A DNA stretch of 34,661 bases from a virus. Taxonomy: Duplodnaviria > Heunggongvirae > Uroviricota > Caudoviricetes. The position numbers were made by a program, and so were the translations under genes. Shown here piece after piece: positions 1,507 to 32,245 of the stretch. The stretch is taken from IMG/VR virus record IMGVR_UViG_2531839482_000004, one strand, 5' to 3'. The number at the start of each line of letters is the position of its first letter. Position 1 is the stretch's first letter. Under the pieces are notes generated by a model, which saw only the letters and a list, made by a program, of their open reading frames with translations, was not told the origin of the DNA and made no database searches.

Positions 1507-1508
1507 CA

Positions 1509-11553: not shown

Positions 11554-11573
<20 letters not shown>

Positions 11574-12873
11574 TCTCCCGCATATTGCCAGTATGGCCTT
11601 TAATGAGCCGCTGATGCTTGAACCCGCCTATGCGCGGGTTTTCTTTTGTGCGCTTGCAGGCCAGCTTGGGATCAGCCGCCTGACGGATGCGGTGTCCGGC
11701 GACAGCCTGACTGCCGGAGAGGCACCCGCGGCGCTGGCGTTATCCGTTGATGATGACGGACCACGACAGGCCCGCAGTTATCAGGTCATGAACGGCATCG
11801 CCGTGCTGCCGGTGTCCGGCACGCTGGTCAGCCGGACGCGGGCGCTGCAGCCGTATTCGGGGATGACCGGTTACAACGGCATTATCGCCCGTCTGCAACA
11901 GGCTGCCAGCGATCCGATGGTGGACGGCATTCTGCTGGATATGGACACACCGGGCGGGATGGTGGCGGGAGCATTTGACTGTGCTGACATCATCGCCCGT
12001 GTGCGAGACATAAAACCGGTATGGGCGCTGGCCAACGACATGAACTGCAGTGCAGGTCAGCTGCTTGCCAGCGCCGCCTCCCGGCGTCTGGTCACGCAGA
12101 CCGCCCGGACAGGCTCCATCGGCGTCATGATGGCTCACAGTAATTACGGTGCTGCGCTGGAGAAACAGGGCGTGGAAATCACGCTGATTTACAGCGGCAG
12201 CCATAAGGTGGATGGCAACCCCTACAGCCATCTACCGGATGATGTCCGGGAAACACTGCAGTCCCGGATGGATGCAACCCGCCGGATGTTTGCACAGAAG
12301 GTGTCGGCATATACCGGCCTGTCCGTGCAGGCTGTGCTGGATACCGAGGCTGCAGTGTACAGCGGTCAGGAGGCCATTGATGCCGGACTGGCTGATGAAC
12401 TTGTGAACAGTACCGATGCGATCACCGTCATGCGTGATGCACTGGATGCACGTAAATCCCGTCTCTCAGGAGGGCGAATGACCAAAGAGACTCAATCAAC
12501 AACTGTTTCAGCCACTGCTTCGCAGGCTGACGTTACTGGCGTGGTGCAAGCGACGGAGGGCGAGAACGCCAGCGCTGCGCAGCCGGACGTGAACGCGCAG
12601 ATCACCGCAGCGGTTGCGGCAGAAAACAGTCGCATTATGGGGATCCTCAACTGTGAGGAGGCTCACGGACGCGAAGAACAGGCATGCGTGCTGGCCGAAA
12701 CCCCCGGTATGACCGTGGAAACGGCCCGCCGTATTCTGGCCGCAGCACCACAGAGTGCACAGGCGCGCAGTGACACTGCGCTGGATCGTCTGATGCAGGG
12801 GGCACCGGCACCGCTGGCTGCAGGTAACCCGGCATCTGATGCCGTTAACGATTTGCTGAACACACCAGTGTAA
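11554..12873 (+). CDS. C: head maturation protease / scaffold gpC
   Basis: GTG start at 11554 overlapping the B 3' end; 439 aa (VTAELRNLPHIASMAFNEPLMLEPAYARVFF...), lambda gpC. Confidence 0.93.
12268..12873 (+). CDS. nu3: scaffolding protein Nu3 (in-frame internal start within C)
   Basis: ATG at 12268 in the C frame (MDATRRMFAQKVSAY...), same nested arrangement as lambda Nu3. Confidence 0.8.
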   Translation: MDATRRMFAQKVSAYTGLSVQAVLDTEAAVYSGQEAIDAGLADELVNSTDAITVMRDALDARKSRLSGGRMTKETQSTTVSATASQADVTGVVQATEGENASAAQPDVNAQITAAVAAENSRIMGILNCEEAHGREEQACVLAETPGMTVETARRILAAAPQSAQARSDTALDRLMQGAPAPLAAGNPASDAVNDLLNTPV

Positions 12874-12882
12874 GGGATGTTT

Positions 12883-13215
12883 ATGACGAGCAAAGAAACC
12901 TTTACCCATTACCAGCCGCTGGGCAACAGTGACCCGGCTCATACCGCAACCGCGCCCGGCGGGTTGAGTGCGAAAGCGCCTGCAATGACCCCGCTGATGC
13001 TGGACCCCTCCACCCGTAAGCTGGTTGCGTGGGATGGCACCACCGACGGTGCTGCCGTTGGCATTCTTGCAGTTGCTGCTGACCAGACCAGCACCACACT
13101 GACGTTCTACAAGTCCGGCACGTTCCGTTATGAGGATGTGCTCTGGCCGGAGGCTGCCAGCGACGAGACGAAAAAACGGACCGCGTTTGCCGGAACGGCA
13201 ATCAGCATCGTTTAA
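12883..13215 (+). CDS. D: head decoration protein gpD
   Basis: [41 protein letters not shown]..., 110 aa, lambda gpD. Confidence 0.95.
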
Positions 13216-13235
13216 CCTGACCCTTCATCACTAAA

Positions 13236-13257
13236 GGCCGCCTGTGCGGCTTTTTTT
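13236..13257 (+). terminator. stem-loop plus T-tract between D and E
   Basis: gccgcctgtgcggc followed by ttttttt; weak terminator or attenuator-like structure. Confidence 0.35.
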
Positions 13258-13270
13258 ACGGGATTTTTTT

Positions 13271-13546
13271 ATGTCGATGTACACAACCGCCCAGCTGCTG
13301 GCGGCAAATGAGCAGAAATTTAAGTTTGATCCGCTGTTTCTGCGTCTCTTTTTCCGTGAGAGCTATCCCTTCACCACGGAGAAAGTCTATCTCTCACAAA
13401 TTCCTGGACTGGTAAACATGGCGCTGTACGTTTCGCCAATTGTTTCCGGTGAGGTTATCCGTTCCCGTGGCGGCTCCACCTCTGAATTTACGCCGGGTTA
13501 TGTCAAGCCGAAGCACTTAGCATGGCTTTCTGAGGCTTTCGTGTAG
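13271..13546 (+). pseudogene. E: major capsid protein gpE, N-terminal fragment (codons 1-82) interrupted by island insertion
   Basis: MSMYTTAQLLAANEQKFKFDPLFLRLFFRESYPF...TPGYVKPKH matches lambda gpE 1-82, then reads into island DNA (LAWLSEAFV*) and stops at 13546. Confidence 0.92.
13506..13515 (+). repeat. attL core AGCCGAAGCA (left island junction inside E)
   Basis: Identical 10-mer occurs at 24486-24495 at the other junction; sequence outside the pair is contiguous lambda E. Confidence 0.75.
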
Positions 13547-13678
13547 TTGCTGGTTTTTACACTTAATCTTTTGATAATAAAGAATAAGTTTATCTGGCGC
13601 TTTCACTGAATTTTCCTCGTTATCTGTGTGTTGCAATCATCTCTGTATTGCAGCTTGTATTGCTTTTTGGGGCTAAAA

Positions 13679-14914
13679 ATGGCTGGCGAGAACAAACTGA
13701 GCGACAAAGCGCTTAAAGGATATCTGGGGAAACCCAGAGAAAAGCAGATCACCATTGCTGATGGAAAGGGGCTTTCTATTCGTGTGAGTACTAAAGGGGC
13801 TGTGAGCTTTGTTTTCTTCTACAGGTTAGCAGGTGGCCGGGCTGCTCCGGTCTGGCTAACGTTGGGTAAATATCCTGATATGTCACTCAAACAGGCAAGG
13901 GAAAAGCGCGACGAGTGCCGTGGTTGGTTGGCTGACAAACGTGATCCGCGTATCCAGATTAAGATTCAGGCTGAAGAACGCTTAAAGCCGGTCACAGTGG
14001 AGGATGCACTAAATTACTGGTATGAAAATTACTGTAAGGTGCGTCGTAAAACTCATGCTGTAACGCTTGGCAGATTTCGAAAGCATATCTTTCCCTATAT
14101 CGGTCATTTGCCCGTAAATGACACTCACCTATATGAATGGCTGGACTGTTTTGACCGAATTAAACGTAATGCACCAGTTATGGCGGCGTATGTTTTTTCT
14201 GACACTAAATTAGCTCTTCGTTTTTGTCGGGTACGCCAGTACGCGACGTGTGATGCTTTAAAGGATTTGCGCATGAGTGATGTGGGGCAGATTGCAGGTA
14301 AGCGGGATCGGGTTCTGGATGAAGCCGAACTGGGCCAGCTCTGGAAGGCAATTTTTGTCGAGCCTGATTTAAAACTAATGTCTGAATACACGCGAAAAAT
14401 GTTTGTGCTTTGTACAGTATTTGGATGTCGAATGAGTGAAGCCCGATTATCTGAATGGAGTGAATGGGATCTCGAAAGTTGGGTTTGGACTGTACCAAAA
14501 GATCACTCAAAAACTGGTGTTGAAATCGTCAGACCAGTACCTGAAATTCTACGACAGTGGGTAACGGATGTTCACGAAGAGACAAAACATACTGGTTATG
14601 TGCTGGGAAGTCTGCGAATTAGAGAAAGCGTAAGCAAGATTGGGGGGAAAATCGGTAAACGTTTGGGCCATGAAAAACAATGGTCACTACACGACCTTAG
14701 AAGAACGCTATCTACTCATCTAAGTGATCTCGGTGTTGAATTTTATGTAGTAGAACAACTGTTAGGCCATGCGCTACCTGGCGTGGCAGGGGTTTACAAC
14801 AGGAGTACGTTTATGGCTAAAAAACTGGATGCTCTGGAACTCTGGACTACATATCTCAATAGCATCGCAGCTGCTGATTCAAAAGTGACAATCCTCAAAC
14901 AAAAGGCTGGTTAA
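13679..14914 (+). CDS. int: tyrosine integrase, P4-type with N-terminal arm-binding domain
   Basis: N-terminus LSDKALKGYLGKPREKQITIADGKGLSIRVS...LGKYPDMSLKQAREKRDE (DUF4102-like); C-terminal catalytic region with HDLRRT and LGH...GVY motifs; first gene inside the left junction. Confidence 0.88.
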   Translation: MAGENKLSDKALKGYLGKPREKQITIADGKGLSIRVSTKGAVSFVFFYRLAGGRAAPVWLTLGKYPDMSLKQAREKRDECRGWLADKRDPRIQIKIQAEERLKPVTVEDALNYWYENYCKVRRKTHAVTLGRFRKHIFPYIGHLPVNDTHLYEWLDCFDRIKRNAPVMAAYVFSDTKLALRFCRVRQYATCDALKDLRMSDVGQIAGKRDRVLDEAELGQLWKAIFVEPDLKLMSEYTRKMFVLCTVFGCRMSEARLSEWSEWDLESWVWTVPKDHSKTGVEIVRPVPEILRQWVTDVHEETKHTGYVLGSLRIRESVSKIGGKIGKRLGHEKQWSLHDLRRTLSTHLSDLGVEFYVVEQLLGHALPGVAGVYNRSTFMAKKLDALELWTTYLNSIAAADSKVTILKQKAG

Positions 14915-14915: not shown

Positions 14916-15143
14916 ATGAAAAAAATGGCAATTGTTGATAAAAAGGGTCTGGAGTACATTCCTAACATTGACCGAATGATCCGTGAGAAAGAATGTCGGG
15001 AGCTAACCACTCTTGCGAACAGCACACGCTGGAAGCTGGAGAAGGAAGGAAAATTTCCTAAGCGGATCAAGATTGGCGCTACTGCGGTAGCTTATCGTCT
15101 CTCCGAAGTTCAGGCATGGATTAAGGGAGAATGGAGTAATTAA
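14916..15143 (+). CDS. alpA: AlpA-family HTH regulator / excisionase-like protein
   Basis: 75 aa; ATG overlaps int stop; ...IKIGATAVAYRLSEVQAWIKGE resembles the AlpA HTH pattern; position immediately after int as in E. coli PICIs and P4-like elements. Confidence 0.75.
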   Translation: MKKMAIVDKKGLEYIPNIDRMIREKECRELTTLANSTRWKLEKEGKFPKRIKIGATAVAYRLSEVQAWIKGEWSN

Positions 15144-15161: not shown

Positions 15162-15983
15162 ATGACAATGTGTGTTATTTGGAAGTCAGTTGATGGAACT
15201 ATTTATGCCGCCACAGATTCTCGACTGAGCTTTGAAGAAAAAAAGTTAGATCGTTGCGTTAAAATATCCCGAATCACATGTCTTTTACATGAGCCTAGTG
15301 ATGCAGTAGATACAAGTAAGATACTTGTTGATAAGCGTGAGATTGCTACATTATTCTGTGGAGGCTTTACAAATGCCTATATCATCAAGGAGAGCCTTAC
15401 TGAGATTTTAAATAAAATAGTTCTCATGAGGGAATACTCCGGCGTGCCCTTTTCGGAAATTATAGATATAGCGTTTTCCATTTATGAAGATACATCAAGA
15501 GATATGTTTGCATCATTAATGGACCAACGATTTGGATGTGTTTTTTACATGATAAGTTACTGCCCTGTATATAAGGAAATGCAAGCATTTAAATTTGAAT
15601 TCAAAATAAATGAAAACGGTATTAACTATTATAAATCTAAACTTTTTGAAGATCGTAACTATGAGGTTAATGGAAGTGGGGTGAGGTACTTGGAACAAAA
15701 TCATCGTATTGAAGATCTAGTTAAAGAAGCTTATCAGAAGAATAAATACACACCACTTCTAGATATACTTGAGTCCGTAATTAATGATGACGACTGTGAC
15801 TCTGTTGGAGGTGCAATGCAATACATTTCATGTAATAAAGATAGACTAAAATTGTGTTGTCATATGTTATTTGAAGAAAATAATCATAAGTATATGAAAG
15901 CTGGGGTGGACTTAAATGAACTCAATGAGAAGTTTATACCTTCTGGTTTGTTTTTTGAGACAGATGCAATCATCAAAAGATAA
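15162..15983 (+). CDS. hypothetical protein, AT-rich cargo gene (possible Ntn-hydrolase-like fold)
   Basis: 273-aa ORF with markedly lower GC than flanks; N-terminus MTMCVIWKSVDGTIYAATDSRL loosely resembles the proteasome/HslV-type N-terminal nucleophile region, with Cys where HslV has Thr. Similarity is weak and unverified. Confidence 0.5.
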   Translation: MTMCVIWKSVDGTIYAATDSRLSFEEKKLDRCVKISRITCLLHEPSDAVDTSKILVDKREIATLFCGGFTNAYIIKESLTEILNKIVLMREYSGVPFSEIIDIAFSIYEDTSRDMFASLMDQRFGCVFYMISYCPVYKEMQAFKFEFKINENGINYYKSKLFEDRNYEVNGSGVRYLEQNHRIEDLVKEAYQKNKYTPLLDILESVINDDDCDSVGGAMQYISCNKDRLKLCCHMLFEENNHKYMKAGVDLNELNEKFIPSGLFFETDAIIKR

Positions 15984-19644: not shown

Positions 19645-19800
19645 AACTGTTCACCAAACTATTCACCGTTCACCTTTTTGATTATTTATTGAGCTTCAAG
19701 GGTGAACAGTGGTGAACAGTTGGTGAATAGTTTTTGTGAAACTGTTCACCCATTAACATTATGAATTAAAAGAGAAAATATCAAAAGGTGAACAGGTGAA
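19645..19800. repeat. iteron cluster, candidate island origin of replication
   Basis: About nine copies of GGTGAACAG / CTGTTCACC (and GGTGAAT variants) in both orientations around an AT-rich core (19756-19786), immediately downstream of the primase gene. Confidence 0.75.
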
Positions 19801-20538: not shown

Positions 20539-20755
20539 ATATTGCCAATAAAAAAGGCCGGAAAAAAATAAATTTTCCGGCATGCTACATAAATCCCGAC
20601 CAAAGGGAGTGAAGATATTAACACTAATTATCCGCGCTGAAGTTGTTATCCCAAAACTTTATACAACATTGCACTCGGTTGCATGTATTCGCATGACAAA
20701 TATCGGTGATAGCATATATCCACAATTATTTTTAATGAATGCAAAGAGGATGCGT

Positions 20756-21796
20756 ATGGTTGATTTATATTCGCCTACCCAGCTTGTACAGGTGGTTAAT
20801 GCTGTAGATGTACAAAAACAACTAAATGCGTTGTTTACCAGTTTGTTTTTTACTCGCTCGGTAATGTTTGAATCGCGCGATATTATTCTTGATACAATCG
20901 ACGATCCAAATATCCCAATTGCAGCGTTTTGTTCTCCTATGGTGGGTAGTAAAGTTTCACGTGACGAAGGGTACGAATCAAAAACAATTCGTCCAGGCTA
21001 TATGAAGCCGAAAAGCAGCATTGATCCAAATAAGTTAGCTGTGCGCCCTGCTGGTGTATCACCTGAGCAATACAATGCTTTTGGAGCGCGTAATATTAAA
21101 GTTAAACAGGCGATTGTAAATCAGGCTAAATCTATTCGTGCACGTATTGAATGGCTTGCCGTTCAGGCAATCACAACGGGGAAAAATATCATTGAGGGCG
21201 ATGGTATTGAACGTTATGAGCTGGACTGGAATATTAAACCACAAAATATCATCACTCAGTCTGGCGGTGCTGAGTGGTCAGGTAAGGATAAAGAAACTTT
21301 TGATCCAAATGATGATATTGAGAGCTACGCAGAATTTAGTGAGGGCGTCACTAATATCATCATTATGGGCGGTAATGTATGGAAGAAATACCGTTCATTC
21401 AGAGCGATAAAAGAGGCTCTGGATACCCGTCGTGGTTCTAATTCCGAACTGGAAACGGCCCTTAAAGACCTTGGTGATTCGGTGAGTTTTAAAGGGTATA
21501 TGGGCGATGTTGCGATTGTTGTATACAGCGGGCGTTATACCGACGAGGACGGAACTGAAAAACATTTCCTTGATCCTGATTTGATGGTGCTTGGCAATAC
21601 GGCTCTTCAGGGGATTGTCGCCTATGGCGGTATTCAGGATCCGGAGCTAATCCGAATGGGGCTGACTAAAGCCGAACTTGCACCGAAAAACTATATTGTG
21701 CCTGGTGATCCGGCTATTGAATATGTGCAGACACATTCAGCACCACAGCCAATACCGGCCCGCATCAATCGTTTTGTTACCGTTCGCATTGGCTAA
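20756..21796 (+). CDS. island-encoded major capsid protein, divergent paralog of lambda gpE
   Basis: 346 aa; shares RPGYMKPK, NIITQSGGAEWSGKDKETFDPNDDIESYA, ALDTRRGSNSELETALKDLG, AIVVYSG, MVLGNT with helper gpE but is diverged throughout; AGAGGA RBS 6 nt before ATG 20756. Confidence 0.88.
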   Translation: MVDLYSPTQLVQVVNAVDVQKQLNALFTSLFFTRSVMFESRDIILDTIDDPNIPIAAFCSPMVGSKVSRDEGYESKTIRPGYMKPKSSIDPNKLAVRPAGVSPEQYNAFGARNIKVKQAIVNQAKSIRARIEWLAVQAITTGKNIIEGDGIERYELDWNIKPQNIITQSGGAEWSGKDKETFDPNDDIESYAEFSEGVTNIIIMGGNVWKKYRSFRAIKEALDTRRGSNSELETALKDLGDSVSFKGYMGDVAIVVYSGRYTDEDGTEKHFLDPDLMVLGNTALQGIVAYGGIQDPELIRMGLTKAELAPKNYIVPGDPAIEYVQTHSAPQPIPARINRFVTVRIG

Positions 21797-21805: not shown

Positions 21806-22147
21806 ATGGCTACTCATTACACTGAACTCATGGCTGGCACTGAAGCACTGGTGACTACGCTGGGGATATTTTCAGCTAATAAAGGGGTAATTCCTGCATT
21901 TACGCCACTGATGCAGGAAGATGCAACAGGTGCACTGGTGGTATGGGATGGTTCGAGCGTAGGTAAAGCGGTTTATGTTTCCGCTGTACAAATCGACACC
22001 GCGAAAAAAACACAGGCTCAGGTCTATAAGACAGGTGTCTTAAATGTTGATGCTCTGAACTGGCCTGAGTCTGTAAAAGAACTGTCAGTAAAGATTGCAG
22101 CGTTTGTTGGCTCAGGTATTTCTGTTCAGCCGCTGGCTCGTGTGTAA
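21806..22147 (+). CDS. island-encoded decoration protein, divergent paralog of lambda gpD
   Basis: 113 aa; shares TPLM, LVVWDG, YKTGV, WPE, AAFVGSGISV with gpD; lies downstream of the capsid gene (order E-like then D-like, opposite to lambda). Confidence 0.75.
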   Translation: MATHYTELMAGTEALVTTLGIFSANKGVIPAFTPLMQEDATGALVVWDGSSVGKAVYVSAVQIDTAKKTQAQVYKTGVLNVDALNWPESVKELSVKIAAFVGSGISVQPLARV

Positions 22148-22158: not shown

Positions 22159-22542
22159 ATGCAGAATGATTACAATGACCTTAAGCCAATTGCCGAAATG
22201 ATGTACCCGAATCCAGCTGTAGAGGAATTAAAAGCTATCGCTGACAAAATGTGTTTAAGCGAGCGCCTTGTTGATATGAATCAGGTGATGGAAATTACAA
22301 CCCTGAGTCGGCGTACACTGCTAAACCTTGAGGCTAGTGGAGAGTTCCCGGAGCGTGTGCAGGTTACGGAAGGGCGTAAGGCCTGGTATTTAAGTGAAGT
22401 GATCGACTGGATAAATAATATTCCTCGCGCTTCTGAATATTGCCGCGTACCTGTCCCAAAAAAGCCAGATGCGGCGCTATGCCTCAAGATTGAGCGTGTA
22501 CGCCGCAATGCACGGGATGGTCGCTATAAGCTGATTGGTTGA
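22159..22542 (+). CDS. AlpA/MerR-like HTH protein with N- and C-terminal extensions
   Basis: 127 aa; core MEITTLSRRTLLNLEASGEFPERVQVTEGRKAWYLSEVIDWI fits the AlpA-type HTH pattern. Confidence 0.6.
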   Translation: MQNDYNDLKPIAEMMYPNPAVEELKAIADKMCLSERLVDMNQVMEITTLSRRTLLNLEASGEFPERVQVTEGRKAWYLSEVIDWINNIPRASEYCRVPVPKKPDAALCLKIERVRRNARDGRYKLIG

Positions 22543-22565
22543 TGAAATTAGGGCCCGCTCTGGCT

Positions 22566-22787
22566 GGCGGGTCCTTTCCGGCGATCTGACAGGCTACGGG
22601 GCGTCAGGCGCGCAGTTTTTCGCTATTTGTGAAAATTTTCCTGTTTAAGGCGTTTCCGTTCTTCTTCGCCGTAACTTAATGTTTTTATTAAAAACACCCC
22701 CTAAAAAGAAAGGAAACGACAGGTGCTAAAAACAGGCTTTTTGGCCTCTGTCGTTTCCTTTCTCTGGTTTTGTCCGTGGAATGAACA
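22566..22787 (+). other. island cos site (cosQ and cosB conserved, cosN divergent)
   Basis: Aligns base-for-base with helper cos 7107-7326, but the cosN position reads GGGCGTCAGGCG (helper GGGCGGCGACCT), with further changes just downstream. Confidence 0.8.
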
Positions 22788-22853
22788 ATGGAAGCCAACA
22801 AAAAGCAGCTGGCTGACATTTTCGGTGCGAGTATCCGTACCATTCAGAACTAG
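22788..22853 (+). pseudogene. Nu1-paralog N-terminal segment ending in an in-frame amber codon (codon 22)
   Basis: MEANKKQLADIFGASIRTIQN then TAG where helper Nu1 has TGG (Trp). Confidence 0.7.
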
Positions 22854-22865
22854 CAGGAGCAGGGA

Positions 22866-23339
22866 ATGCCCGTTCTGCGAGGCGGTGGCAAGGGTAATGA
22901 GGTGCTTTATGACTCTGCCGCCGTCATAAAATGGTATGCCGAAAGGGATGCTGAAATTGAGAACGAAAAGCTGCGCCGGGAGGTTGAAGAACTGCGGCAG
23001 GCCAGCGAGGCAGATCTCCTGCCAGGGACTATTGAGTATGAACGCCATCGACTTACGCGTGCGCAGGCCGACGCACAGGAACTGAAGAATGCCAGCGAAA
23101 CAGGTGAGGTAATTGACACTGCATTTGCGACTTATGCTTTGTCGAAATTAACTGGGGAAGTTGGAGCAATCATTGATAGTCTTCCACTTGCGATCTGTCG
23201 ACAGTTTCCTGGCATGGAAAAACGGTATCAGGACTTCATTAAGATGGAGGTCAGTAAAGCATTTATTCGAGCTTACCAGATCTCAGATAACATTCCAGAT
23301 ATGGCTGAAAGGTATATCAAGGATAATCAGCGAAGTTAA
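22866..23339 (+). CDS. N-terminally truncated terminase small-subunit paralog (Nu1 residues 27-end; divergent C-terminal domain)
   Basis: Starts at the codon equivalent to Nu1 Met27, where a GAA->GAG change creates a GGAG Shine-Dalgarno 6 nt upstream; first ~80 aa near-identical to Nu1, last ~75 aa replaced by AT-rich divergent sequence. Confidence 0.7.
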   Translation: MPVLRGGGKGNEVLYDSAAVIKWYAERDAEIENEKLRREVEELRQASEADLLPGTIEYERHRLTRAQADAQELKNASETGEVIDTAFATYALSKLTGEVGAIIDSLPLAICRQFPGMEKRYQDFIKMEVSKAFIRAYQISDNIPDMAERYIKDNQRS

Positions 23340-23445: not shown

Positions 23446-24351
23446 TTAAGGTAGTGGTACTATGGATATTTTTCTGTCGTTCCCAAATGAACTTTTAAAT
23501 AATTTCGCTCTTGGATACATCTTAACTAGTGATGCGACTTCATCGAACTCGCTGGCATCAAAAAGAGGACCAAGTATTACAGATTTTAACTCAAAAGGGT
23601 GAAATTTTAAGTCGCTATATTGACCAGTGCTATTTGGCCTAGCGTAGGTTGAAATTCTCCACTCTCTTTCATATGCCCATTCTTCTGTTTTTATGAATAT
23701 TATCTCATTATTGATATATTCAATTGACTTATTGTCTGGCATGAAAAGCAACTCGGCCATCCCTTCAGCAGTGTGAGTTAGAGGCATTTCATCTGTGTAT
23801 TTCATAGGTTTGGCTATTAACCAAGCGCTATCCAGAAAGTCTACACAATCAAATTCGATAACTATACCTTTATATTTATCGGCATAGTGATTCCACATAG
23901 GAGTGATTATAGGGCTCTCAGATAAACACAAAATCCTTCTGTTATTAAGCATTCCTCGCCAGACATCTTTCATTTCTTGTATTGCCGCAGGAGCGCCAAT
24001 CCCAACTGGTGGAATGTTTACCATTTCTTGAAATCTTTCAATTAATCCTGCGGGTATGCCTAAAGGAAATGACTTTTGGAAATCACTTAGCATTGTTCTA
24101 ATTCTAGGGTTTAAATTTTGTATGTCTTCTCTGGGGGTAATCAACTCCGCTATTAACTTGCGGGCTAAAGCTTTGCCAATATTAATTTCGTTAATACCAG
24201 GCATAACTTCTCTTGGAACATCAAAAGGGTCATTAAATAGGACCGGAGAACTCCATCTAAGGCTGCATGAATCAAGAACAATTTTCGCGGTATTCAACGA
24301 CATATACTTATAAAATGTTGAGCGTTCATGCATTCTGTTGGGTGAGCGCAT
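23446..24351 (-). CDS. hypothetical protein, DUF2971-like, AT-rich cargo gene
   Basis: 301 aa; N-terminal FYKYMSL...LRWSSPVLFNDPFD and WAYEREWRI motifs as recalled for DUF2971 proteins; low GC; GAGGA RBS; last gene before the right junction. Confidence 0.55.
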   Translation of the reverse strand: MRSPNRMHERSTFYKYMSLNTAKIVLDSCSLRWSSPVLFNDPFDVPREVMPGINEINIGKALARKLIAELITPREDIQNLNPRIRTMLSDFQKSFPLGIPAGLIERFQEMVNIPPVGIGAPAAIQEMKDVWRGMLNNRRILCLSESPIITPMWNHYADKYKGIVIEFDCVDFLDSAWLIAKPMKYTDEMPLTHTAEGMAELLFMPDNKSIEYINNEIIFIKTEEWAYEREWRISTYARPNSTGQYSDLKFHPFELKSVILGPLFDASEFDEVASLVKMYPRAKLFKSSFGNDRKISIVPLP

Positions 24352-24485
24352 AGATTCCTCTTGTTAAATGAGTGATGGTTTTCATCCATGTATTGCACGT
24401 TGTATTGCATTCAAGGATTTTCCATTTCAATTCTATAGCTAAAACGTAATCAAATCATTCACATCCTTTCATATTTGACTCATGT

Positions 24486-24495
24486 AGCCGAAGCA
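24486..24495 (+). repeat. attR core AGCCGAAGCA (right island junction)
   Basis: Identical to 13506-13515; E coding sequence resumes in frame immediately afterwards. Confidence 0.75.
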
Positions 24496-25276
24496 TGAGG
24501 TGAATCCGCAGATGACCCTGCGTCGCCTGCCGGATGAAGATCCGCAGAATCTGGCGGACCCGGCTTACCGCCGCCGTCGCATCATCCTGCAGAACATGCG
24601 TGACGAAGAGCTGGCCATTGCTCAGGTCGAAGAGATGCAGGCAGTTTCTGCCGTGCTCAAGGGCAAATACACCATGACCGGTGAAGCCTTCGATCCGGTT
24701 GAGGTGGATATGGGCCGCAGTGCGGCGAACAACATCACGCAGTCCGGCGGCACGGAGTGGAGCAAGCGTGACAAGTCCACGTATGACCCGACCGACGATA
24801 TCGAAGCCTACGCGCTGAACGCCAGCGGCGTGGTGAATATCATCGTGTTTGATCCGAAAGGCTGGGCGCTGTTCCGTTCCTTCAAAGCCGTCAAGGAGAA
24901 GCTGGATACCCGTCGCGGCTCTAATTCCGAGCTGGAGACAGCGGTAAAAGACCTGGGCGAAGCGGTGTCCTATAAGGGGATGTATGGCGATACGGCGATC
25001 GTCGTGTATTCCGGACAGTACGTGGAAAACGACGTCAAAAAGAACTTCCTGCCGGACAACACGATGGTGCTGGGGAACACTCAGGCACGCGGTCTGCGCA
25101 CCTATGGCTGCATTCAGGATGCGGACGCACAGCGCGAAGGTATTAACGCCTCTGCCCGCTACCCGAAAAACTGGGTGACCACCGGCGATCCGGCGCGTGA
25201 GTTCACCATGATTCAGTCAGCACCGCTGATGCTGCTGGCTGATCCTGATGCGTTCGTGTCCGTACAACTGGCGTAA
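24486..25276 (+). pseudogene. E: major capsid protein gpE, C-terminal fragment (codons ~80-341)
   Basis: ...KHEVNPQMTLRRLPDEDPQNLADPAYRRRRIILQNMRDEE... to ...FVSVQLA matches lambda gpE; preceded in frame by a TAG from island DNA. Confidence 0.92.
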
Positions 25277-25278
25277 TC

Positions 25279-25300
25279 ATGGCCCTTCGGGGCCATTTTC
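25279..25300 (+). terminator. stem-loop after E
   Basis: atggcccttcggggccat followed by tttctctc. Confidence 0.35.
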
Positions 25301-25317
25301 TCTCTGTGGAGGAGTCC

Positions 25318-25713
25318 ATGACGAAAGATGAACTGATTGCCCGTCTTCAGGTGCTGGGTGAGCAACTGAACCGTGATGTCAGCCTGACGGGGACGAAAGA
25401 AGAACTGGTGCTCCGTGTGGCAGAGCTGGAAGAGGAGCTTGATGACACGGATGACGCTGCCGGTCAGGACACATCTGTCAACCCGGAAAATGCGCTGACC
25501 GGACATGAAAATGAGGTGGTATCAGCGCAGCCGGATACCGTGATTGATACGGCTGCTCTGGTCACGGTCGTGGCACTGGTGACGCTGCATACTGATGCAC
25601 TTCACGCCACGCGGGATGAGCCTGTGGCATTTGTGCTGCCGGGAACGGCGTTTCGTGTCTCTGCCGGTGTGGCAGCCGAAATGACAGAACATGGCCTGGC
25701 CAGAATGCAATAA
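25318..25713 (+). CDS. FI: DNA-packaging protein gpFI
   Basis: MTKDELIARLQVLGEQLNRDVSLTGTKEEL..., lambda gpFI; GGAGG RBS. Confidence 0.93.
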   Translation: MTKDELIARLQVLGEQLNRDVSLTGTKEELVLRVAELEEELDDTDDAAGQDTSVNPENALTGHENEVVSAQPDTVIDTAALVTVVALVTLHTDALHATRDEPVAFVLPGTAFRVSAGVAAEMTEHGLARMQ

Positions 25714-25724
25714 CGGGAGGCGCT

Positions 25725-26078
25725 GTGGCTGATTCCGATAACCTGTTCGATGCTGCCATTGCCCGCGCCGATGAAACGATACGCGGGTACATGGGAACGT
25801 CAGCCACCATGACATCCGGTGAGCTGTCCGGTGCTGTGATACGTGGTGTTTTTGATGACCCTGAAAATATCAGCTATGCCGGACAGGGGGTGCGCGTTGA
25901 AGGCTCCAGCCCGTCCCTGTTTGTCCGGACTGATGATGTGCGGCAGCTGCGGCGTGGAGACACACTGACCATCGGCGAGGAAAACTTCTGGGTGGACCGG
26001 ATTTCGCCGGATGATGGCGGAAGCTGTCATCTCTGGCTTGGGCGTGGCGTGCCGCCTGCCGTTAACCGTCGCCGCTGA
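25725..26078 (+). CDS. FII: head-tail connector gpFII
   Basis: GTG start; 117 aa matching lambda gpFII. Confidence 0.93.
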   Translation: MADSDNLFDAAIARADETIRGYMGTSATMTSGELSGAVIRGVFDDPENISYAGQGVRVEGSSPSLFVRTDDVRQLRRGDTLTIGEENFWVDRISPDDGGSCHLWLGRGVPPAVNRRR

Positions 26079-26089
26079 AAGGGGGATGT

Positions 26090-26668
26090 ATGGCCATAAA
26101 AGGTCTTGAGCAGGCCGTTGAAAACCTCAGCCGTATCAGCAAAACGGCGGTGCCTGGTGCCGCCGCAATGGCCATTAACCGCGTTGCGTCATCCGCGATA
26201 TCGCAGTCTGCGTCACAGGTTGCCCGTGAGACAAAGGTACGCCGGAAACTGGTAAAGGAAAGGGCCAGGCTGAAAAGGGCCACGGTCAAAAATCCGCAGG
26301 CCAGAATCAGGGTTAACCGGGGGGATTTGCCCGTAATCAAGCTGGGTAACGCGCGGGTTGTCCTTTCCCGCCGCAGACGTCGTAAAAAGGGGCAGCGTTC
26401 ATCCCTGAAAGGTGGCGGCAGCGTGCTTGTGGTGGGAAACCGTCGTATTCCCGGCGCGTTTATTCAGCAACTGAAAAATGGCCGGTGGCATGTCATGCAG
26501 CGTGTGGCCGGGAAAAACCGTTACCCCATTGATGTGGTGAAAATCCCGATGGCGGTGCCGCTTACCACGGCGTTTAAACAGAATATTGAACGGATACGGC
26601 GTGAACGTCTTCCGAAAGAGCTGGGCTATGCGCTGCAGCATCAACTGAGAATGGTAATAAAGCGATGA
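26090..26668 (+). CDS. Z: tail completion protein gpZ
   Basis: 192 aa matching lambda gpZ. Confidence 0.93.
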   Translation: MAIKGLEQAVENLSRISKTAVPGAAAMAINRVASSAISQSASQVARETKVRRKLVKERARLKRATVKNPQARIRVNRGDLPVIKLGNARVVLSRRRRRKKGQRSSLKGGGSVLVVGNRRIPGAFIQQLKNGRWHVMQRVAGKNRYPIDVVKIPMAVPLTTAFKQNIERIRRERLPKELGYALQHQLRMVIKR

Positions 26669-27060
26669 AACATACTGAACTCCGTGCAGCCGTACTGGAT
26701 GCACTGGAGAAGCATGACACCGGGGCGACGCTTTTTGATGGTCGCCCCGCTGTTTTTGATGAGGCGGATTTTCCGGCAATTGCCGTTTATCTCACCGGCG
26801 CTGAATACACGGGCGAAGAGCTGGACAGTGATACCTGGCAGGCGGAGCTGCATATTGAAGTTTTCCTGCCTGCTCAGGTGCCGGATTCAGAGCTGGATTC
26901 GTGGATGGAGTCCCGGATTTATCCGGTGATGAGCGATGTCCCGGCACTGTCAGATTTGATCACCAGTATGGTGGCCAGTGGCTATGACTACCGGCGCGAC
27001 GATGATGCGGGCCTGTGGAGTTCAGCCGATCTGACTTATGTCATTACCTATGAAATGTGA
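26665..27060 (+). CDS. U: tail terminator protein gpU
   Basis: 131 aa matching lambda gpU. Confidence 0.93.
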
Positions 27061-27067
27061 GGACGAT

Positions 27068-27808
27068 ATGCCTGTACCAAATCCAGTAATGCCGGTGAAA
27101 GGGGCCGGGACCACACTGTGGGTTTATAAGGGGAACGGTGACCCTTATGCGAACCCGCTTTCAGACGTTGACTGGTCGCGTCTGGCTAAAGTTAAAGACC
27201 TGACGCCCGGCGAACTGACCGCTGAGTCCTATGACGACAGCTATCTCGATGATGAAGATGCGGACTGGACTGCGACCGGGCAGGGGCAGAAATCTGCCGG
27301 AGATACCAGCTTCACGCTGGCGTGGATGCCCGGAGAGCAGGGGCAGCAGGCGCTGCTGGCGTGGTTTAATGAAGGGGATACCCGTGCCTATAAAATCCGC
27401 TTCCCGAACGGCACGGTCGATGTGTTCCGCGGCTGGGTCAGCAGTATCGGTAAGGCGGTGACGGCGAAGGAAGTGATCACCCGCACGGTGAAAGTCACCA
27501 ACGTGAGACGTCCGTCGATGGCAGAAGATCGCAGCACGGTAACAGCGGCAACCGGCATGACCGTGACGCCTGCCAGCACTTCGGTGGTGAAAGGGCAGAG
27601 CACCACGCTGACCGTGGCATTCCAGCCGGAAGGCGCAACCGACAAGAGCTTCCGTGCGGTGTCTGCGGATAAAACAAAAGCCACCGTGTCGGTCAGTGGT
27701 ATGACCATCACCGTGAAAGGTGTTGCTGCAGGCAAGGTCAACATTCCGGTTGTATCCGGTAATGGTGAACTTGCTGTGGTTGCAGAAATCACCGTCACCG
27801 ACAGTTAA
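27068..27808 (+). CDS. V: major tail tube protein gpV
   Basis: [22 protein letters not shown]... 246 aa, lambda gpV with C-terminal Ig-like domain. Confidence 0.93.
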
Positions 27809-27823
27809 TCCGGAGAGTCAGCG

Positions 27824-28246
27824 ATGTTCCTGAAAACCGAATCATTTGAATATAACGGTGTGAGCGTCACGCTTTCTGAACTGTCAGCCCTGCAGCGAAT
27901 TGAGCATCTCGCCCTGCTGAAACGACAGGCAGAACAGGCGGGATCCAGTCTCAATCGACAGGTGAGCGTGGAAGATCTCGTCAGAACCGGTGCTTTTCTG
28001 GTGGCGATGTCCCTGTGGCATAGCCATCCGCAGAAGACAAAGATGCCGTCCATGAATGAAGCCGTTAAACAAATTGAGCAGGAAGTGCTTACCACCTGGC
28101 CCACAGAGGCAATTGCTCAGGCTGAAAATGTGGTAATGCGTCTGTCCGGTATGTCTGAGTTTGTTGTGAATGATGCACCTGAACAGGCAGATGACGCCGG
28201 GCCAGCAGAGCCTGTTTCTGCGGGAAAGTGTTCGACGGTGAGCTGA
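27824..28246 (+). CDS. G: tail assembly chaperone gpG
   Basis: 140 aa matching lambda gpG. Confidence 0.93.
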   Translation: MFLKTESFEYNGVSVTLSELSALQRIEHLALLKRQAEQAGSSLNRQVSVEDLVRTGAFLVAMSLWHSHPQKTKMPSMNEAVKQIEQEVLTTWPTEAIAQAENVVMRLSGMSEFVVNDAPEQADDAGPAEPVSAGKCSTVS

Positions 28247-28662
28247 GTTTTGCCCTGAAACTGGCGCGTGAGATGGGGCGACCCGACTGGCGCGCCATGC
28301 TTGCCGGGATGTCATCCACGGAGTATGCCGACTGGCACCGCTTTTACAGTACCCATTATTTTCATGATGTTCTGCTGGATATGCACTTTTCCGGGCTGAC
28401 GTACACCGTACTCAGCCTGTTTTTCAGCGATCCGGATATGCATCCGCTGGATTTCAGTCTGCTGAACCGGCGCGAGGCTGACGAAGAGCCTGAAGATGAT
28501 GTGCTGATGCAGAAAGCGGCAGGGCTTGCCGGAGGCGTCCGCTTTGGCCCGGACGGGAATGAAGTTATCCCCGCTTCCCCGGATGTGGCGGACATGACGG
28601 AGGATGACGTAATGCTGATGACAGTATCAGAAGGGATCGCAGGAGGAGTCCGGTATGGCTGA
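27824..28662 (+). CDS. T: tail assembly chaperone gpG-T (-1 programmed frameshift product)
   Basis: Slippery heptamer G GGA AAG at 28222-28228 near the G 3' end; the -1 frame continues as the gpT ORF (to 28662). Confidence 0.85.
28222..28228 (+). other. -1 ribosomal frameshift slippery site GGGAAAG
   Basis: Seen directly at the G/T overlap; conserved lambda G-T mechanism. Confidence 0.85.
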
Positions 28663-31216
28663 ACCGGTAGGCGATCTGGTCGTTGATTTGAGTCTGGATG
28701 CGGCCAGATTTGACGAGCAGATGGCCAGAGTCAGGCGTCATTTTTCCGGTACGGAAAGTGATGCGAAAAAAACAGCGGCAGTCGTTGAACAGTCGATGAA
28801 CCGGCAGGCGCTGGCTGCACAGAAAGCGGGAATTTCCGTCGGGCAGTATAAAGCCGCCATGCGTATGCTGCCTGCGCAGTTCACTGACGTGGCCACGCAG
28901 CTTGCAGGCGGGCAAAGTCCGTGGCTGATCCTGCTGCAACAGGGGGGTCAGGTGAAGGACTCCTTCGGCGGGATGATCCCCATGTTCCGGGGGCTTGCCG
29001 GTGCGATCACCCTGCCGATGGTGGGGGCTACCTCGCTGGCGGTGGCGACCGGAGCGCTGGCGTATGCCTGGTATCAGGGCAACTCAACCCTGTCCGATTT
29101 CAACAAAACGCTGGTCCTTTCCGGCAATCAGGCGGGACTGACGGCAGATCGTATGCTGGTCCTGTCCAGAGCCGGGCAGGCGGCAGGGCTGACGTTTAAC
29201 CAGACCAGCGAGTCACTCAGCGCACTGGTTAAGGCGGGGGTAAGCGGTGAGGCTCAGATTGCGTCCATCAGCCAGAGTGTGGCGCGTTTCTCCTCTGCAT
29301 CCGGCGTGGAGGTGGACAAGGTCGCTGAAGCCTTCGGGAAGCTGACCACAGACCCGACGTCGGGGCTGACGGCGATGGCACGCCAGTTCCATAACGTGAC
29401 GGCGGAGCAGATTGCGTATGTTGCTCAGTTGCAGCGTTCCGGCGATGAAGCCGGGGCATTGCAGGCGGCGAACGAGGCCGCAACGAAAGGGTTTGATGAC
29501 CAGACCCGACGCTTGAAAGAGAACATGGGCACGCTGGAAACCTGGGCAGACAGGACAGCACGGGCATTCAAATCCATGTGGGATGCGGTGCTGGATATTG
29601 GTCGTCCTGATACCGCGCAGGAGATGCTGATTAAGGCAGAGGCCGCGTTTAAGAAAGCGGACGATATCTGGAATCTGCGCAAGGATGATTATTTTGTTAA
29701 CGATGAAGCGCGGGCGCGTTACTGGGATGATCGTGAAAAGGCCCGTCTTGCGCTTGAAGTCGCCCGAAAGAAGGCTGAGCAGCAGAGTCAACAGGACAAA
29801 AATGCGCAGCAGCAGAGCGATACCGAAGCGTCACGGCTGAAATATACCGAAGAGGCGCAGAAGGCTTACGAACGGCTGCAGACGCCGCTGGAGAAATATA
29901 CCGCCCGTCAGGAAGAACTGAACAAGGCACTGAAAGACGGGAAAATCCTGCAGGCGGATTACAACACGCTGATGGCGGCGGCGAAAAAGGATTATGAAGC
30001 GACGCTGAAAAAGCCGAAACAGTCCGGCGTGAAGGGGTCTGCGGGCGATCGTCAGGAAGACAGTGCTCATGCTGCCCTGCTGACGCTTCAGGCAGAACTC
30101 CGGACGCTGGAGAAGCATGCCGGAGCAAATGAGAAAATCAGCCAGCAGCGCCGGGATTTGTGGAAGGCGGAGAGTCAGTTCGCGGTACTGGAGGAGGCGG
30201 CGCAACGTCGCCAGCTGTCTGCACAGGAGAAATCCCTGCTGGCGCATAAAGATGAGACGCTGGAGTACAAACGCCAGCTGGCTGCACTTGGCGACAAGGT
30301 TACGTATCAGGAGCGCCTGAACGCGCTGGCGCAGCAGGCGGATAAATTCGCACAGCAGCAACGGGCAAAACGGGCCGCCATTGATGCGAAAAGCCGGGGG
30401 CTGACTGACCGGCAGGCAGAACGGGAAGCCACGGAACAGCGCCTGAAGGAACAGTATGGCGATAATCCGCTGGCGCTGAATAACGTCATGTCAGAGCAGA
30501 AAAAGACCTGGGCGGCTGAAGACCAGCTTCGCGGGAGCTGGATGGCAGGCCTGAAGTCCGGCTGGAGTGAGTGGGAAGAGAGCGCCACGGACAGTATGTC
30601 GCAGGTAAAAAGTGCAGCCACGCAGACCTTTGATGGTATTGCACAGAATATGGCGGCGATGCTGACCGGCAGTGAGCAGAACTGGCGCAGCTTCACCCGT
30701 TCCGTGCTGTCCATGATGACAGAAATTCTGCTTAAGCAGGCAATGGTGGGGATTGTCGGGAGTATCGGCAGCGCCATTGGCGGGGCTGTTGGTGGCGGCG
30801 CATCCGCGTCAGGCGGTACAGCCATTCAGGCCGCTGCGGCGAAATTCCATTTTGCAACCGGAGGATTTACGGGAACCGGCGGCAAATATGAGCCAGCGGG
30901 GATTGTTCACCGTGGTGAATTTGTCTTCACGAAGGAGGCAACCAGCCGGATTGGCGTGGGGAATCTTTACCGGCTGATGCGCGGCTATGCCACCGGCGGT
31001 TATGTCGGTACACCGGGCAGCATGGCAGACAGCCGGTCGCAGGCGTCCGGGACGTTTGAGCAGAATAACCATGTGGTGATTAACAACGACGGCACGAACG
31101 GGCAGATAGGTCCGGCTGCTCTGAAGGCGGTGTATGACATGGCCCGCAAGGGTGCCCGTGATGAAATTCAGACACAGATGCGTGATGGTGGCCTGTTCTC
31201 CGGAGGTGGACGATGA
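28655..31216 (+). CDS. H: tape measure protein gpH
   Basis: 853 aa matching lambda gpH. Confidence 0.95.
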   Translation: MAEPVGDLVVDLSLDAARFDEQMARVRRHFSGTESDAKKTAAVVEQSMNRQALAAQKAGISVGQYKAAMRMLPAQFTDVATQLAGGQSPWLILLQQGGQVKDSFGGMIPMFRGLAGAITLPMVGATSLAVATGALAYAWYQGNSTLSDFNKTLVLSGNQAGLTADRMLVLSRAGQAAGLTFNQTSESLSALVKAGVSGEAQIASISQSVARFSSASGVEVDKVAEAFGKLTTDPTSGLTAMARQFHNVTAEQIAYVAQLQRSGDEAGALQAANEAATKGFDDQTRRLKENMGTLETWADRTARAFKSMWDAVLDIGRPDTAQEMLIKAEAAFKKADDIWNLRKDDYFVNDEARARYWDDREKARLALEVARKKAEQQSQQDKNAQQQSDTEASRLKYTEEAQKAYERLQTPLEKYTARQEELNKALKDGKILQADYNTLMAAAKKDYEATLKKPKQSGVKGSAGDRQEDSAHAALLTLQAELRTLEKHAGANEKISQQRRDLWKAESQFAVLEEAAQRRQLSAQEKSLLAHKDETLEYKRQLAALGDKVTYQERLNALAQQADKFAQQQRAKRAAIDAKSRGLTDRQAEREATEQRLKEQYGDNPLALNNVMSEQKKTWAAEDQLRGSWMAGLKSGWSEWEESATDSMSQVKSAATQTFDGIAQNMAAMLTGSEQNWRSFTRSVLSMMTEILLKQAMVGIVGSIGSAIGGAVGGGASASGGTAIQAAAAKFHFATGGFTGTGGKYEPAGIVHRGEFVFTKEATSRIGVGNLYRLMRGYATGGYVGTPGSMADSRSQASGTFEQNNHVVINNDGTNGQIGPAALKAVYDMARKGARDEIQTQMRDGGLFSGGGR

Positions 31217-31542
31217 AGACCTTCCGCTGGAAAGTGAAACCCGGTATGGATGTGGCTTCGGTCCCTTCTGTAAGAAAGGTGCGCTTTGGTGATGGCTATT
31301 CTCAGCGAGCGCCTGCCGGGCTGAATGCCAACCTGAAAACGTACAGCGTGACGCTTTCTGTCCCCCGTGAGGAGGCCACGGTACTGGAGTCGTTTCTGGA
31401 AGAGCACGGGGGCTGGAAATCCTTTCTGTGGACGCCGCCTTATGAGTGGCGGCAGATAAAGGTGACCTGCGCAAAATGGTCGTCGCGGGTCAGTATGTTG
31501 CGTGTTGAGTTCAGCGCAGAGTTTGAACAGGTGGTGAACTGA
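31213..31542 (+). CDS. M: tail tip protein gpM
   Basis: 109 aa matching lambda gpM. Confidence 0.93.
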   Translation: MKTFRWKVKPGMDVASVPSVRKVRFGDGYSQRAPAGLNANLKTYSVTLSVPREEATVLESFLEEHGGWKSFLWTPPYEWRQIKVTCAKWSSRVSMLRVEFSAEFEQVVN

Positions 31543-32240
31543 TGCAGGATATCCGGCAGGAAACACTGAATGAATGCACCCGTGCGGAGCAGTCGGCCAG
31601 CGTGGTGCTCTGGGAAATCGACCTGACAGAGGTCGGTGGAGAACGTTATTTTTTCTGTAATGAGCAGAACGAAAAAGGTGAGCCGGTCACCTGGCAGGGG
31701 CGACAGTATCAGCCGTATCCCATTCAGGGGAGCGGTTTTGAACTGAATGGCAAAGGCACCAGTACGCGCCCCACGCTGACGGTTTCTAACCTGTACGGTA
31801 TGGTCACCGGGATGGCGGAAGATATGCAGAGTCTGGTCGGCGGAACGGTGGTCCGGCGTAAGGTTTACGCCCGTTTTCTGGATGCGGTGAACTTCGTCAA
31901 CGGAAACAGTTACGCCGATCCGGAGCAGGAGGTGATCAGCCGCTGGCGCATTGAGCAGTGCAGCGAACTGAGCGCGGTGAGTGCCTCCTTTGTACTGTCC
32001 ACGCCGACGGAAACGGATGGCGCTGTTTTTCCGGGACGTATCATGCTGGCCAACACCTGCACCTGGACCTATCGCGGTGACGAGTGCGGTTATAGCGGTC
32101 CGGCTGTCGCGGATGAATATGACCAGCCAACGTCCGATATCACGAAGGATAAATGCAGCAAATGCCTGAGCGGTTGTAAGTTCCGCAATAACGTCGGCAA
32201 CTTTGGCGGCTTCCTTTCCATTAACAAACTTTCGCAGTAA
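31542..32240 (+). CDS. L: tail tip protein gpL
   Basis: 232 aa matching lambda gpL. Confidence 0.93.
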   Translation: MQDIRQETLNECTRAEQSASVVLWEIDLTEVGGERYFFCNEQNEKGEPVTWQGRQYQPYPIQGSGFELNGKGTSTRPTLTVSNLYGMVTGMAEDMQSLVGGTVVRRKVYARFLDAVNFVNGNSYADPEQEVISRWRIEQCSELSAVSASFVLSTPTETDGAVFPGRIMLANTCTWTYRGDECGYSGPAVADEYDQPTSDITKDKCSKCLSGCKFRNNVGNFGGFLSINKLSQ

Positions 32241-32245
32241 ATCCC

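Follow-up and report, generated by a model that had tools for sequence, protein, structure and literature searches.

A winged helix–turn–helix (HTH) protein of the AlpA family, encoded by the last gene of a mobile capsid cassette in a prophage satellite, is under selection, and its cassette is conserved together with an array of phased hexamers that is unique in the 34,661-nucleotide stretch of phage DNA analysed here ('the window'; IMG/VR record IMGVR_UViG_2531839482_000004). We tentatively read this 127-aa protein, below the HTH protein, as a dedicated regulator of the cassette, which comprises a lambda-E-like gene, a lambda-D-like gene and the HTH gene itself; should that hold, it would probably be a positive autoregulator. 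None of the satellite type, the AlpA family or cos piracy is new. What appears to be undescribed in the literature examined is the extended AlpA subfamily, its constant location as the final gene of a capsid cassette that is itself mobile, and the candidate operator. Gram-negative PICIs and helper-embedded PICIs (HE-PICIs) are common in E. coli and its relatives, and the timing and purpose of their capsid genes could be approached through a regulator/operator pair that moves with the capsid cassette.

A capsid cassette in a helper-embedded satellite

A lambdoid prophage makes up the window, and its gene E is split by a helper-embedded PICI of ~11 kb, the published 11capE type described by Tommasini, Mageeney and Williams (site E:Phage_cap_E:80); a free-standing PICI is thereby ruled out. 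The lambda-E-like capsid gene of the helper is cut at attL, where the satellite starts (identity block AGCCGAAGCA, 13506..13515, forward strand), and resumes at attR (the same block, 24485..24494, forward strand). The block agrees with the published 10-bp block of 11capE. HE-PICIs carry a doubled motif, TGTATTGC-N4-TGTATTGC, ~81 bp upstream and ~132 bp downstream of the attP centre (PMC10111431), and copies are found here at 24389-24409 and 13644-13664, at the published distances. Excision of 11capE is late, after the composite has replicated. The HE-PICI authors hypothesise helper read-through for late transcription in general; they place AlpA beside int, and a second AlpA-type gene in the late zone is not discussed in the part of their report available.

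A RefSeq twin of the window (L001, 99.6% identical) supplies an annotated gene order. Its prophage runs nohD/Nu1, A, W, B, C, D and then the major capsid gene, split by the element; the capsid fragment is annotated and is followed by int. Within the element the order is int, a 75-aa AlpA, a variable zone, a D5/P4-type primase, SSB, the E-like, D-like and HTH genes, cos and a Nu1-like gene. A reverse-strand DUF2971 gene ends the element, after which the capsid gene resumes and the lambda tail genes follow. In the window the tyrosine integrase of the satellite (13680..14914, forward strand; in the ORF list and annotated in L001) is adjoined by the 75-aa AlpA gene (14916..15143, forward strand), whose orthologues in L003-L007 match Pfam Phage_AlpA. 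The HTH gene is thus the second AlpA-type gene of the island, as had been claimed from the sequence. A repeat search located an origin-like iteron cluster just after the primase gene (19645..19798), with ~8 copies of GGTGAACAG in both orientations. Rfam models gave no match in the window at gathering thresholds.

The capsid operon is divided from the replication module by a terminator-like palindromic hairpin (20557..20581), and hairpins are found at the same upstream place in other loci. The major capsid gene of lambda-E type (20756..21796, forward strand; 346 aa in RefSeq; Pfam Phage_cap_E, E=3e-41) has its ATG at 20756 and a Shine-Dalgarno sequence at ~20744. It is followed on the forward strand by the lambda-D-like head decoration gene (21806..22147; Pfam HDPD, E=4e-15) and the HTH gene (22159..22542; ATG at 22159, TGA at 22540-22542). 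The intergenic gaps are 9 and 11 nt, the ATG of the HTH gene lying 11 nt past the D-like stop, and a GGGGG Shine-Dalgarno sequence stands 6 nt 5' of that start. These neighbours confirm that the gene ends the capsid module. The original prediction had also called the three genes co-transcribed: the compact unit, with its short gaps and flanking hairpins, is borne out, and co-transcription itself is what such a layout would suggest.

Directly past the HTH stop is a GC-rich hairpin (GGGCCCGC / GCGGGTCC, 22551..22574, forward strand), a weak terminator-like element whose 3' arm overlaps cosQ. A hairpin likewise stands 3' of the capsid cassette and before cos in L011, L015, L017 and EcCICFT073. 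The HTH stop lies 26 bp ahead of a cosQ/cosN of lambda type, in keeping with the claimed position just upstream of the island cos. The cosQ-like element GGGTCCTTTCCGGC (22569..22582) is identical to that of the helper cos and conserved across satellites; the cohesive-end equivalent in cosN is GGGCGTCAGGCG (22599..22610; helper counterpart GGGCGGCGACCT), and the lambda-like cosB region (22640..22785) is ~92% identical to helper cosB, all three on the forward strand. Taken together, the satellite cosQ, cosN, cosB and the start of Nu1 are ~90% identical to the helper's own cos (~7110-7330). The Nu1-like small-terminase gene (22788..23339, forward strand) is interrupted in the window by a TAG at 22851-22853; the codon is TGG in the helper and in L001, where the satellite copy is intact (183 aa).

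The cassette was compared in loci from E. coli (two types), Buttiauxella, Serratia plymuthica, Cedecea, Kosakonia, Kluyvera and Superficieibacter and on two metagenomic contigs. The trio of E-like, D-like and HTH genes is constant in all of them, and the cassette is kept as a unit of terminator, promoter-like region, E-like gene, D-like gene, HTH gene, hairpin and cos, with the HTH gene always ending ~25-60 bp from cosQ. The integrases beside the trio range from 98% down to ~31% identity or are undetectable as relatives, and the HTH-bearing satellites are integrated in prophage gene E, at another prophage site or at fis. The small int-proximal HTH protein is AlpA-type, HTH_17-type or unrelated, and the primase is of D5_N/Pox_D5 or DUF927 type. 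TerS-like genes come in up to three types, among them a lambda-like one and a Nu1 type of 38-43% identity, or are absent. At least three types of cosB and at least six versions of the 12-nt cosN core are freely combined. An RDF should track the integrase and a packaging-specificity factor should track cos; the HTH protein tracks neither.

The AlpA-type HTH protein

Residues 36-85 of the HTH protein match Pfam Phage_AlpA (PF05930) over profile positions 2-51 of 51, at 35.8 bits against a cut-off of 21 (E=7.6e-9), in agreement with the AlpA/MerR-type HTH core that had been predicted. The remaining Pfam matches at E<=1 are HTH_17 and DUF746, both weak. PHROG 2790, labelled 'excisionase and transcriptional regulator', aligns to residues 11-109 (E=1e-49), and the top solved relative by sequence is the AlpA-family excisionase GIsul2 Xis (8c3t, E=2e-9). 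The predicted layout is an N-terminal helical hairpin (~8-33), a winged HTH (37-87), a linker and a C-terminal basic helix (105-120). A first AF2 model, built on 28 close homologues, had a pLDDT of 59 and uninformative Foldseek matches. The AlphaFold model from a deeper alignment reaches a pLDDT of 81 overall and ~95 in the core, with two N-terminal helices, the winged HTH, an ill-defined linker and a C-terminal helix; the deeper alignment settled the HTH core and left the placement of the extensions loose. The closest solved folds to the model are the excisionases 8c3t, RdfS, Pukovnik Xis and a Klebsiella putative excisionase; BldC and MerR-family proteins rank after these, and PrtN-annotated viral proteins are present among the fold matches. 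As modelled, the protein has a MerR-like/excisionase-like winged-helix fold (β strand, HTH, β-hairpin wing, helix).

A word-indexed search returned 98 relatives, nearly all of 127 aa and from Enterobacteriaceae, and a genome scan extended the family by four genera. In an exhaustive profile search of 1.84 billion representative proteins, ~3 further clusters align over most of the HTH profile; the other ~2,230 matches are restricted to the core, roughly residues 33-90. The extensions, described as unique in the original prediction, are thus confirmed as confined to a handful of protein clusters. No full-length relative was found by tblastn in 50,697 phage records; the family is borne by satellites and not by phages. 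When IMG/VR and metagenome contigs were scanned for more distant members of the family, the only copies to turn up were E. coli-like.

Conservation runs over the whole length of the protein. It includes an N-terminal AD-M-LSERLVDM segment, the recognition helix TLSRRTLLNLE, which is almost invariant across loci, and a C-terminal tail, WINNIPR-S--C-VPVP-KPD--LCLK-ER-RR, with a basic helix and two conserved Cys. Of 80 near-identical IMG/VR loci, 77 have an intact copy of the gene; synonymous sites are saturated, pN is 0.13-0.38 and dN/dS is ~0.19. Judged from these substitution patterns, purifying selection acts on the HTH protein along its whole length.

A phased array ahead of the capsid operon

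Between the upstream hairpin and the E-like gene lies a phased array of four hexamers with a 10-bp period (20659..20694, forward strand), the candidate operator of the HTH protein. The hexamers are TTATAC (20659), TTGCAC (20669), TTGCAT (20679) and TCGCAT (20689), separated by N4 spacers. An extended -10-like element, TG-a-TAGCAT (20707..20715, forward strand), is found 15 nt past the fourth hexamer and 25 nt past the third, and is kept as TGATAGCAT, TGATACCAT or TGCTAGCAT in L014, L015 and L017. No good -35 element stands alongside it, and a generic promoter scan of the region did not flag it; its assignment as a -10 is a guess from consensus, and its role in a promoter is put forward on the same footing. 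If TAGCAT is the -10, the three best-conserved hexamers would be centred near -40, -50 and -60, the placement of an activator at a promoter that has no -35.

Sites were scored as arrays when they had at least 15 of 18 matches to three TTGCAC hexamers at 10-bp phase, a score that gave no match in 20 shuffles. By this measure the array is found once per locus, ~85-110 nt before the E-like start, in eight of nine diverse loci; the Serratia loci (L011/L012) have a degenerate phased version, TTGGGT/TTGTGC/TTGTGC. It is unique in the window, where a pattern search returned the same site, and in L001. Every one of the 80 loci in the first IMG/VR set has it, with no other scoring site in their 669 kb; substitutions within it fall mostly in the spacers, and among the hexamers the fourth alone varies. 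The array heads every upstream-sequence variant in the fetched loci that have both the E-like and the HTH gene (~200 non-independent entries), in degenerate form in L011 and L002. It is absent from five EcCICFT073-type E-D cassettes that have no HTH gene; these carry a small additional ORF and an operator-like palindrome of another kind, CATTGCA-N5-TGCAATG, beside a TATAAT. Essentially two cassette lineages are compared here, effectively one evolutionary contrast, and shared descent could explain the association of the HTH gene with the array.

Several other roles for the array were considered. It was rejected as a replication origin, the separate GGTGAACAG iteron cluster being found after pri, and is unlikely to be the site of the int-proximal AlpA, a protein that changes type while the array stays. 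The half-site arrangement of lambda CII is TTGC-N6-TTGC; the geometry of the array and its TTATAC/TTGTAC hexamer variants fit a CII site poorly. Within the HTH protein, the changes R52Q (Serratia) and R52G (Cedecea) go together with TTGTGC and TTGTAC repeats; TTATAC also occurs with R52, and this covariation is too thin to carry weight.

The HTH protein is the sole DNA-binding protein common to all array-bearing elements, and the array precedes its operon, which favours a regulator of the cassette. Binding of DNA by the protein is predicted from this layout. The protein would bind the three or four TTGCAC hexamers at 20659-20694 head-to-tail as several monomers; direct repeats on one helix face are bound cooperatively in this way by monomeric winged-helix proteins of Xis/AlpA type (Gifsy-1, lambda Xis; PMC2603039). 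The array would then occupy positions of about -38 to -73, counted from the extended -10-like element, beside which there is no usable -35, and the protein would most likely activate, and so auto-amplify, the three-gene operon. The satellites are co-oriented with the helper late operon, so in the embedded state the first HTH molecules could come from helper late transcription that reads through the satellite; thereafter, with the satellite excised, the protein would sustain expression of the capsid operon. The original prediction had suggested that the protein may couple island late genes to the helper or act on helper promoters. The phased array in the promoter-like region of its own operon supports the part concerned with control of island late genes; the part concerned with helper promoters finds no counterpart, as set out below.

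Some observations sit less easily with autoregulation. EcCICFT073-type cassettes manage without such a protein, and any regulatory role may be non-essential. Dedicated activators are not among the closest solved structures, which are excisionases; the array could be the target of a factor from host or helper; and the conserved C-terminal tail is left unaccounted for.

Those structures, together with the PHROG 2790 label, would suit an excisionase (RDF) of the satellite, or by cross-talk of the helper prophage, which times excision late, as is the case for 11capE after replication of the composite. We consider this unlikely: the gene is ~7 kb from int, which is adjoined by a separate small gene of AlpA/Xis type, and the recognition helix is nearly invariant whereas the integrases are 98% to ~31% identical or unrelated and the satellites occupy different integration sites. 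According to the available part of one source (PMC11773190), an AlpA-like protein of a PICI helps its helper to excise, and not the PICI itself, which would fit cross-talk. However, no TTGCAC array, itself a candidate motif only, is found near attL or attR, and TGTATTGC-N4-TGTATTGC is confined to loci of HE-PICI type, being absent from the HTH-bearing L009, L011/L012, L015 and L016; this doubled attP motif was rejected as a target of the HTH protein on that ground. The short distance to cosQ points elsewhere, to a packaging accessory that acts at cos or on the small terminase as a functional analogue of Rpp or Ppi. L011, L015, L017 and L004 bear the HTH gene and have no detectable TerS-like gene after cos, and satellite cosN cores differ from the helper's, both of which would leave room for such a factor. 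Yet the types of cosB (at least three) and the cores of cosN (at least six) combine freely while the reading head of the HTH protein is constant, so that it cannot determine specificity for either, and the sole invariant cos elements are shared with helpers. No repeat like the array of the E-like promoter region is found near cos. The protein has no sequence similarity to Rpp, which is absent from its PDB sequence matches at E<=10; in structure matches a dozen generic MerR/Xis folds come ahead of Rpp and TerS, and Rpp is encoded after cos, in the TerS position. A packaging role is, on this evidence, quite improbable.

Satellites commonly encode regulators of helper late genes, P4 Delta and the SaPI Pti proteins among them, and contacts to other proteins could be made through the conserved extensions at both termini. 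Regulation outside the cassette, of helper genes (interference) or of host genes, is nevertheless doubtful. Neither the array nor paired hexamers above chance are found in the window's helper DNA (1-13505 and 24495-34661) or in L001, and none in 33 kb, early region included, of the lambdoid prophage of CFT073, a result that speaks against action on helper promoters; the search used the array motif and is a weak test should the protein recognise another. The same protein also occurs with helpers that look very unlike one another, with lambda-like siphovirus tails or a P2-like baseplate (L002). A host target has a precedent in another E. coli PICI, which encodes a putative repressor that silences virulence genes according to the available part of PMC11773190. 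Finally, the array might be bound by another factor, such as a host regulator, a CII-like activator of the helper or the int-proximal AlpA, with the HTH protein a minor or redundant passenger. The resemblance of the repeats to the TTGC-N6-TTGC arrangement of lambda CII points that way, as do the TTGCA-like words in EcCICFT073-type promoters and the marker insertion tolerated by c1501, the gene in the equivalent EcCICFT073 position. Against this, the protein is under whole-length purifying selection and intact in 77 of 80 copies, the conserved hexamers lie near -40, -50 and -60 and do not straddle -35, some variants (TTATAC/TTGTAC) have no TTGC, and the int-proximal HTH protein varies in type where the array does not; we give this reading a small chance.

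A dedicated cassette regulator, probably autoregulatory, remains the reading that we prefer, tentatively as stated. A more speculative extension of it, to which we attach a low probability, makes the HTH protein a hand-over switch for satellites that ride inside or beside a helper. Its first synthesis would be passive, by Q-antiterminated helper late transcription or AlpA-driven read-through; bound to the array, it would then lock on the capsid operon after excision, once the helper promoter is lost. The C-terminal tail might contact the terminase or capsid machinery at the adjacent cos and so link late transcription to packaging. If the regulator/operator pair is confirmed, it would amount to a small expression module, portable and triggered by phage, of use in engineered PICI 'drones'.

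Comparison with known systems

Of the excisionases that resemble the protein in fold, the Xis-type RDFs (GIsul2 Xis 8c3t, RdfS, lambda Xis) differ from it in gene position; the HTH protein is, besides, independent of integrase type, and its candidate motif is absent from the att sites. The Pseudomonas AlpA-type antiterminator, a Q-like eight-helix fold with a C-terminal HTH, shares the name only. The PrtN/P-box system of Pseudomonas pyocin genes (definition in PMC4905994) is matched in architecture only, by the array and the Shine-Dalgarno sequence at ~20744; the repeat word differs and the HTH protein has no Pfam PrtN-family match at E<=1. The binding proposed for the array would nevertheless resemble that of the activator PrtN to its P-boxes, or of P4 Vis to late promoters.

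The Rpp protein of EcCICFT073 is likewise a cos-adjacent winged-HTH protein of the MerR-like superfamily in a PICI that has an E-like and D-like cassette. Rpp binds the helper TerS and retargets packaging (PMC6739421); Rpp proteins have an N-terminal winged HTH and a C-terminal helical dimerisation domain that binds the DNA-binding domain of TerS. In EcCICFT073 the order is E-like, D-like, c1501 (an unrelated 137-aa protein), terminator, cosQ/cosN and RppA (144 aa). RppA (L008:2660-3094) is thus encoded after cosN, in the TerS slot, and the HTH gene before cos, in the slot of c1501; the HTH protein has no sequence similarity to Rpp or c1501 and was rejected as an Rpp homologue. By its position the Nu1-like gene after cos is the equivalent of Rpp. 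This corrects a possible misassignment: the cos-proximal HTH protein here is not the Rpp packaging-redirection factor. The capsid and decoration genes of EcCICFT073 are dispensable for its transfer, and c1501 served as a neutral marker site (PMC6092414).

P4 Vis offers another parallel, as a small AlpA/Xis-like DNA-binding protein of a satellite (DNA binding by the HTH protein being a prediction). As far as the available part of PMC2603039 goes, which cites Polo 1996 and Cali 2004, Vis regulates the late (morphogenetic) promoters of P4 and binds attP. Vis is also the excisionase, a role against which the att-site and integrase comparisons speak for the HTH protein, and is encoded in the P4 late-left operon near int. 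No significant match to P4 is among the best 25 of 28 phage matches.

With the AlpA family itself (PF05930; CP4-57 AlpA, EcCICFT073 PICI AlpA) the HTH protein shares the winged-HTH core, and with EcCICFT073 AlpA the encoding by a satellite. A typical AlpA is a single domain of ~60-90 aa encoded beside the integrase, whereas the HTH protein, at 127 aa and ~7 kb from int, is nearly twice as long and adds an N-terminal helical hairpin and a Cys-containing basic C-terminal tail. Identity to the satellite's own AlpA is ~30-36% over the core. The PICI AlpA activates its own promoter (PMC6092414), as is proposed here for the HTH protein at the capsid operon.

Cohesive ends and terminase gene of the satellite

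The 12-nt cohesive-end core reads GGGCGTCAGGCG in the satellite (22599-22610) versus GGGCGGCGACCT in the helper (7138-7149), and the cosQ and cosB elements flanking these differing cores are about 92% identical between the two. Comparison of cosN and cosB across satellites (the window and loci L002-L004, L011, L014-L017 and L018-L097) gave at least six cosN cores and three cosB types, which occur in free combination.

The satellite Nu1-like small-terminase gene (22788-23339) contains an in-frame TAG at 22851-22853, which on sequence comparison replaces the TGG codon (Trp22) of the helper and of L001, the closely related RefSeq region. The identical stop is present in three of the seven IMG/VR copies with this terS type. 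From an ATG at 22866 a product could still be made, though without helix 1 of the DNA-binding domain. The N-terminal ~100 residues of the Nu1-like protein are ~98% identical to lambda Nu1, and its C-terminal, gpA-binding half is divergent from it.

The Buttiauxella satellite (L002) carries the same module as the window, comprising the E-like, D-like and HTH genes, cos and the Nu1-like gene. The DNA around it (L002 1-285 and 13245-20384) appears to belong to a prophage encoding a P2-like baseplate and tail fibres, so the capsid cassette is not limited to lambda-tailed helpers.

Likely replication origin, attachment sites and variable zones

Directly 3′ of the primase gene is a dense cluster (19645-19798) of about eight copies of the iteron GGTGAACAG, in both orientations and separated by AT-rich spacers; it is likely the satellite origin of replication. 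The doubled attP motif published for HE-PICI, TGTATTGCA-N3-TGTATTGC, occurs at 13644-13664 and 24389-24409, each copy as far from the crossover as previously reported. The motif has the word ATTGCA in common with the hexamers of the capsid promoter, but its period is 12 bp, and it is missing from the non-embedded satellites that carry the HTH gene.

In the window, the final slot ahead of attR is occupied by a DUF2971 gene (23446-24351, minus strand); in sister elements (L003, L005-L007) an Abi_C-domain gene takes its place. This appears to be a position for variable cargo, perhaps defence genes. The zone after alpA also varies, with a 273-aa ORF in the window (15162-15983, plus strand) and a 178-aa gene in L001 (15672-16208, minus strand), despite 99.6% identity elsewhere; this divergence agrees with the ‘dynamic Bro zone’ described in the literature on HE-PICIs.

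Comparison with EcCICFT073

Unlike the HTH-bearing type, EcCICFT073 (L008:330-420) and its relatives (L098-L101) have a different conserved promoter upstream of the E-like gene, containing ATTTGCAA, the palindrome CATTGCA-N5-TGCAATG and TATAAT or TAAAAT. It is followed by a 68-90-aa ORF that overlaps the capsid start, and together these probably form a further uncharacterised regulator/operator pair. Before cos, the EcCICFT073-type cassettes encode c1501, an acidic protein of 137-141 aa unrelated to the HTH protein. After cos, Rpp takes the same position as the satellite Nu1-like gene (L008:2084-3094 compared with window 22159-23339), which fits Rpp being a diverged TerS.
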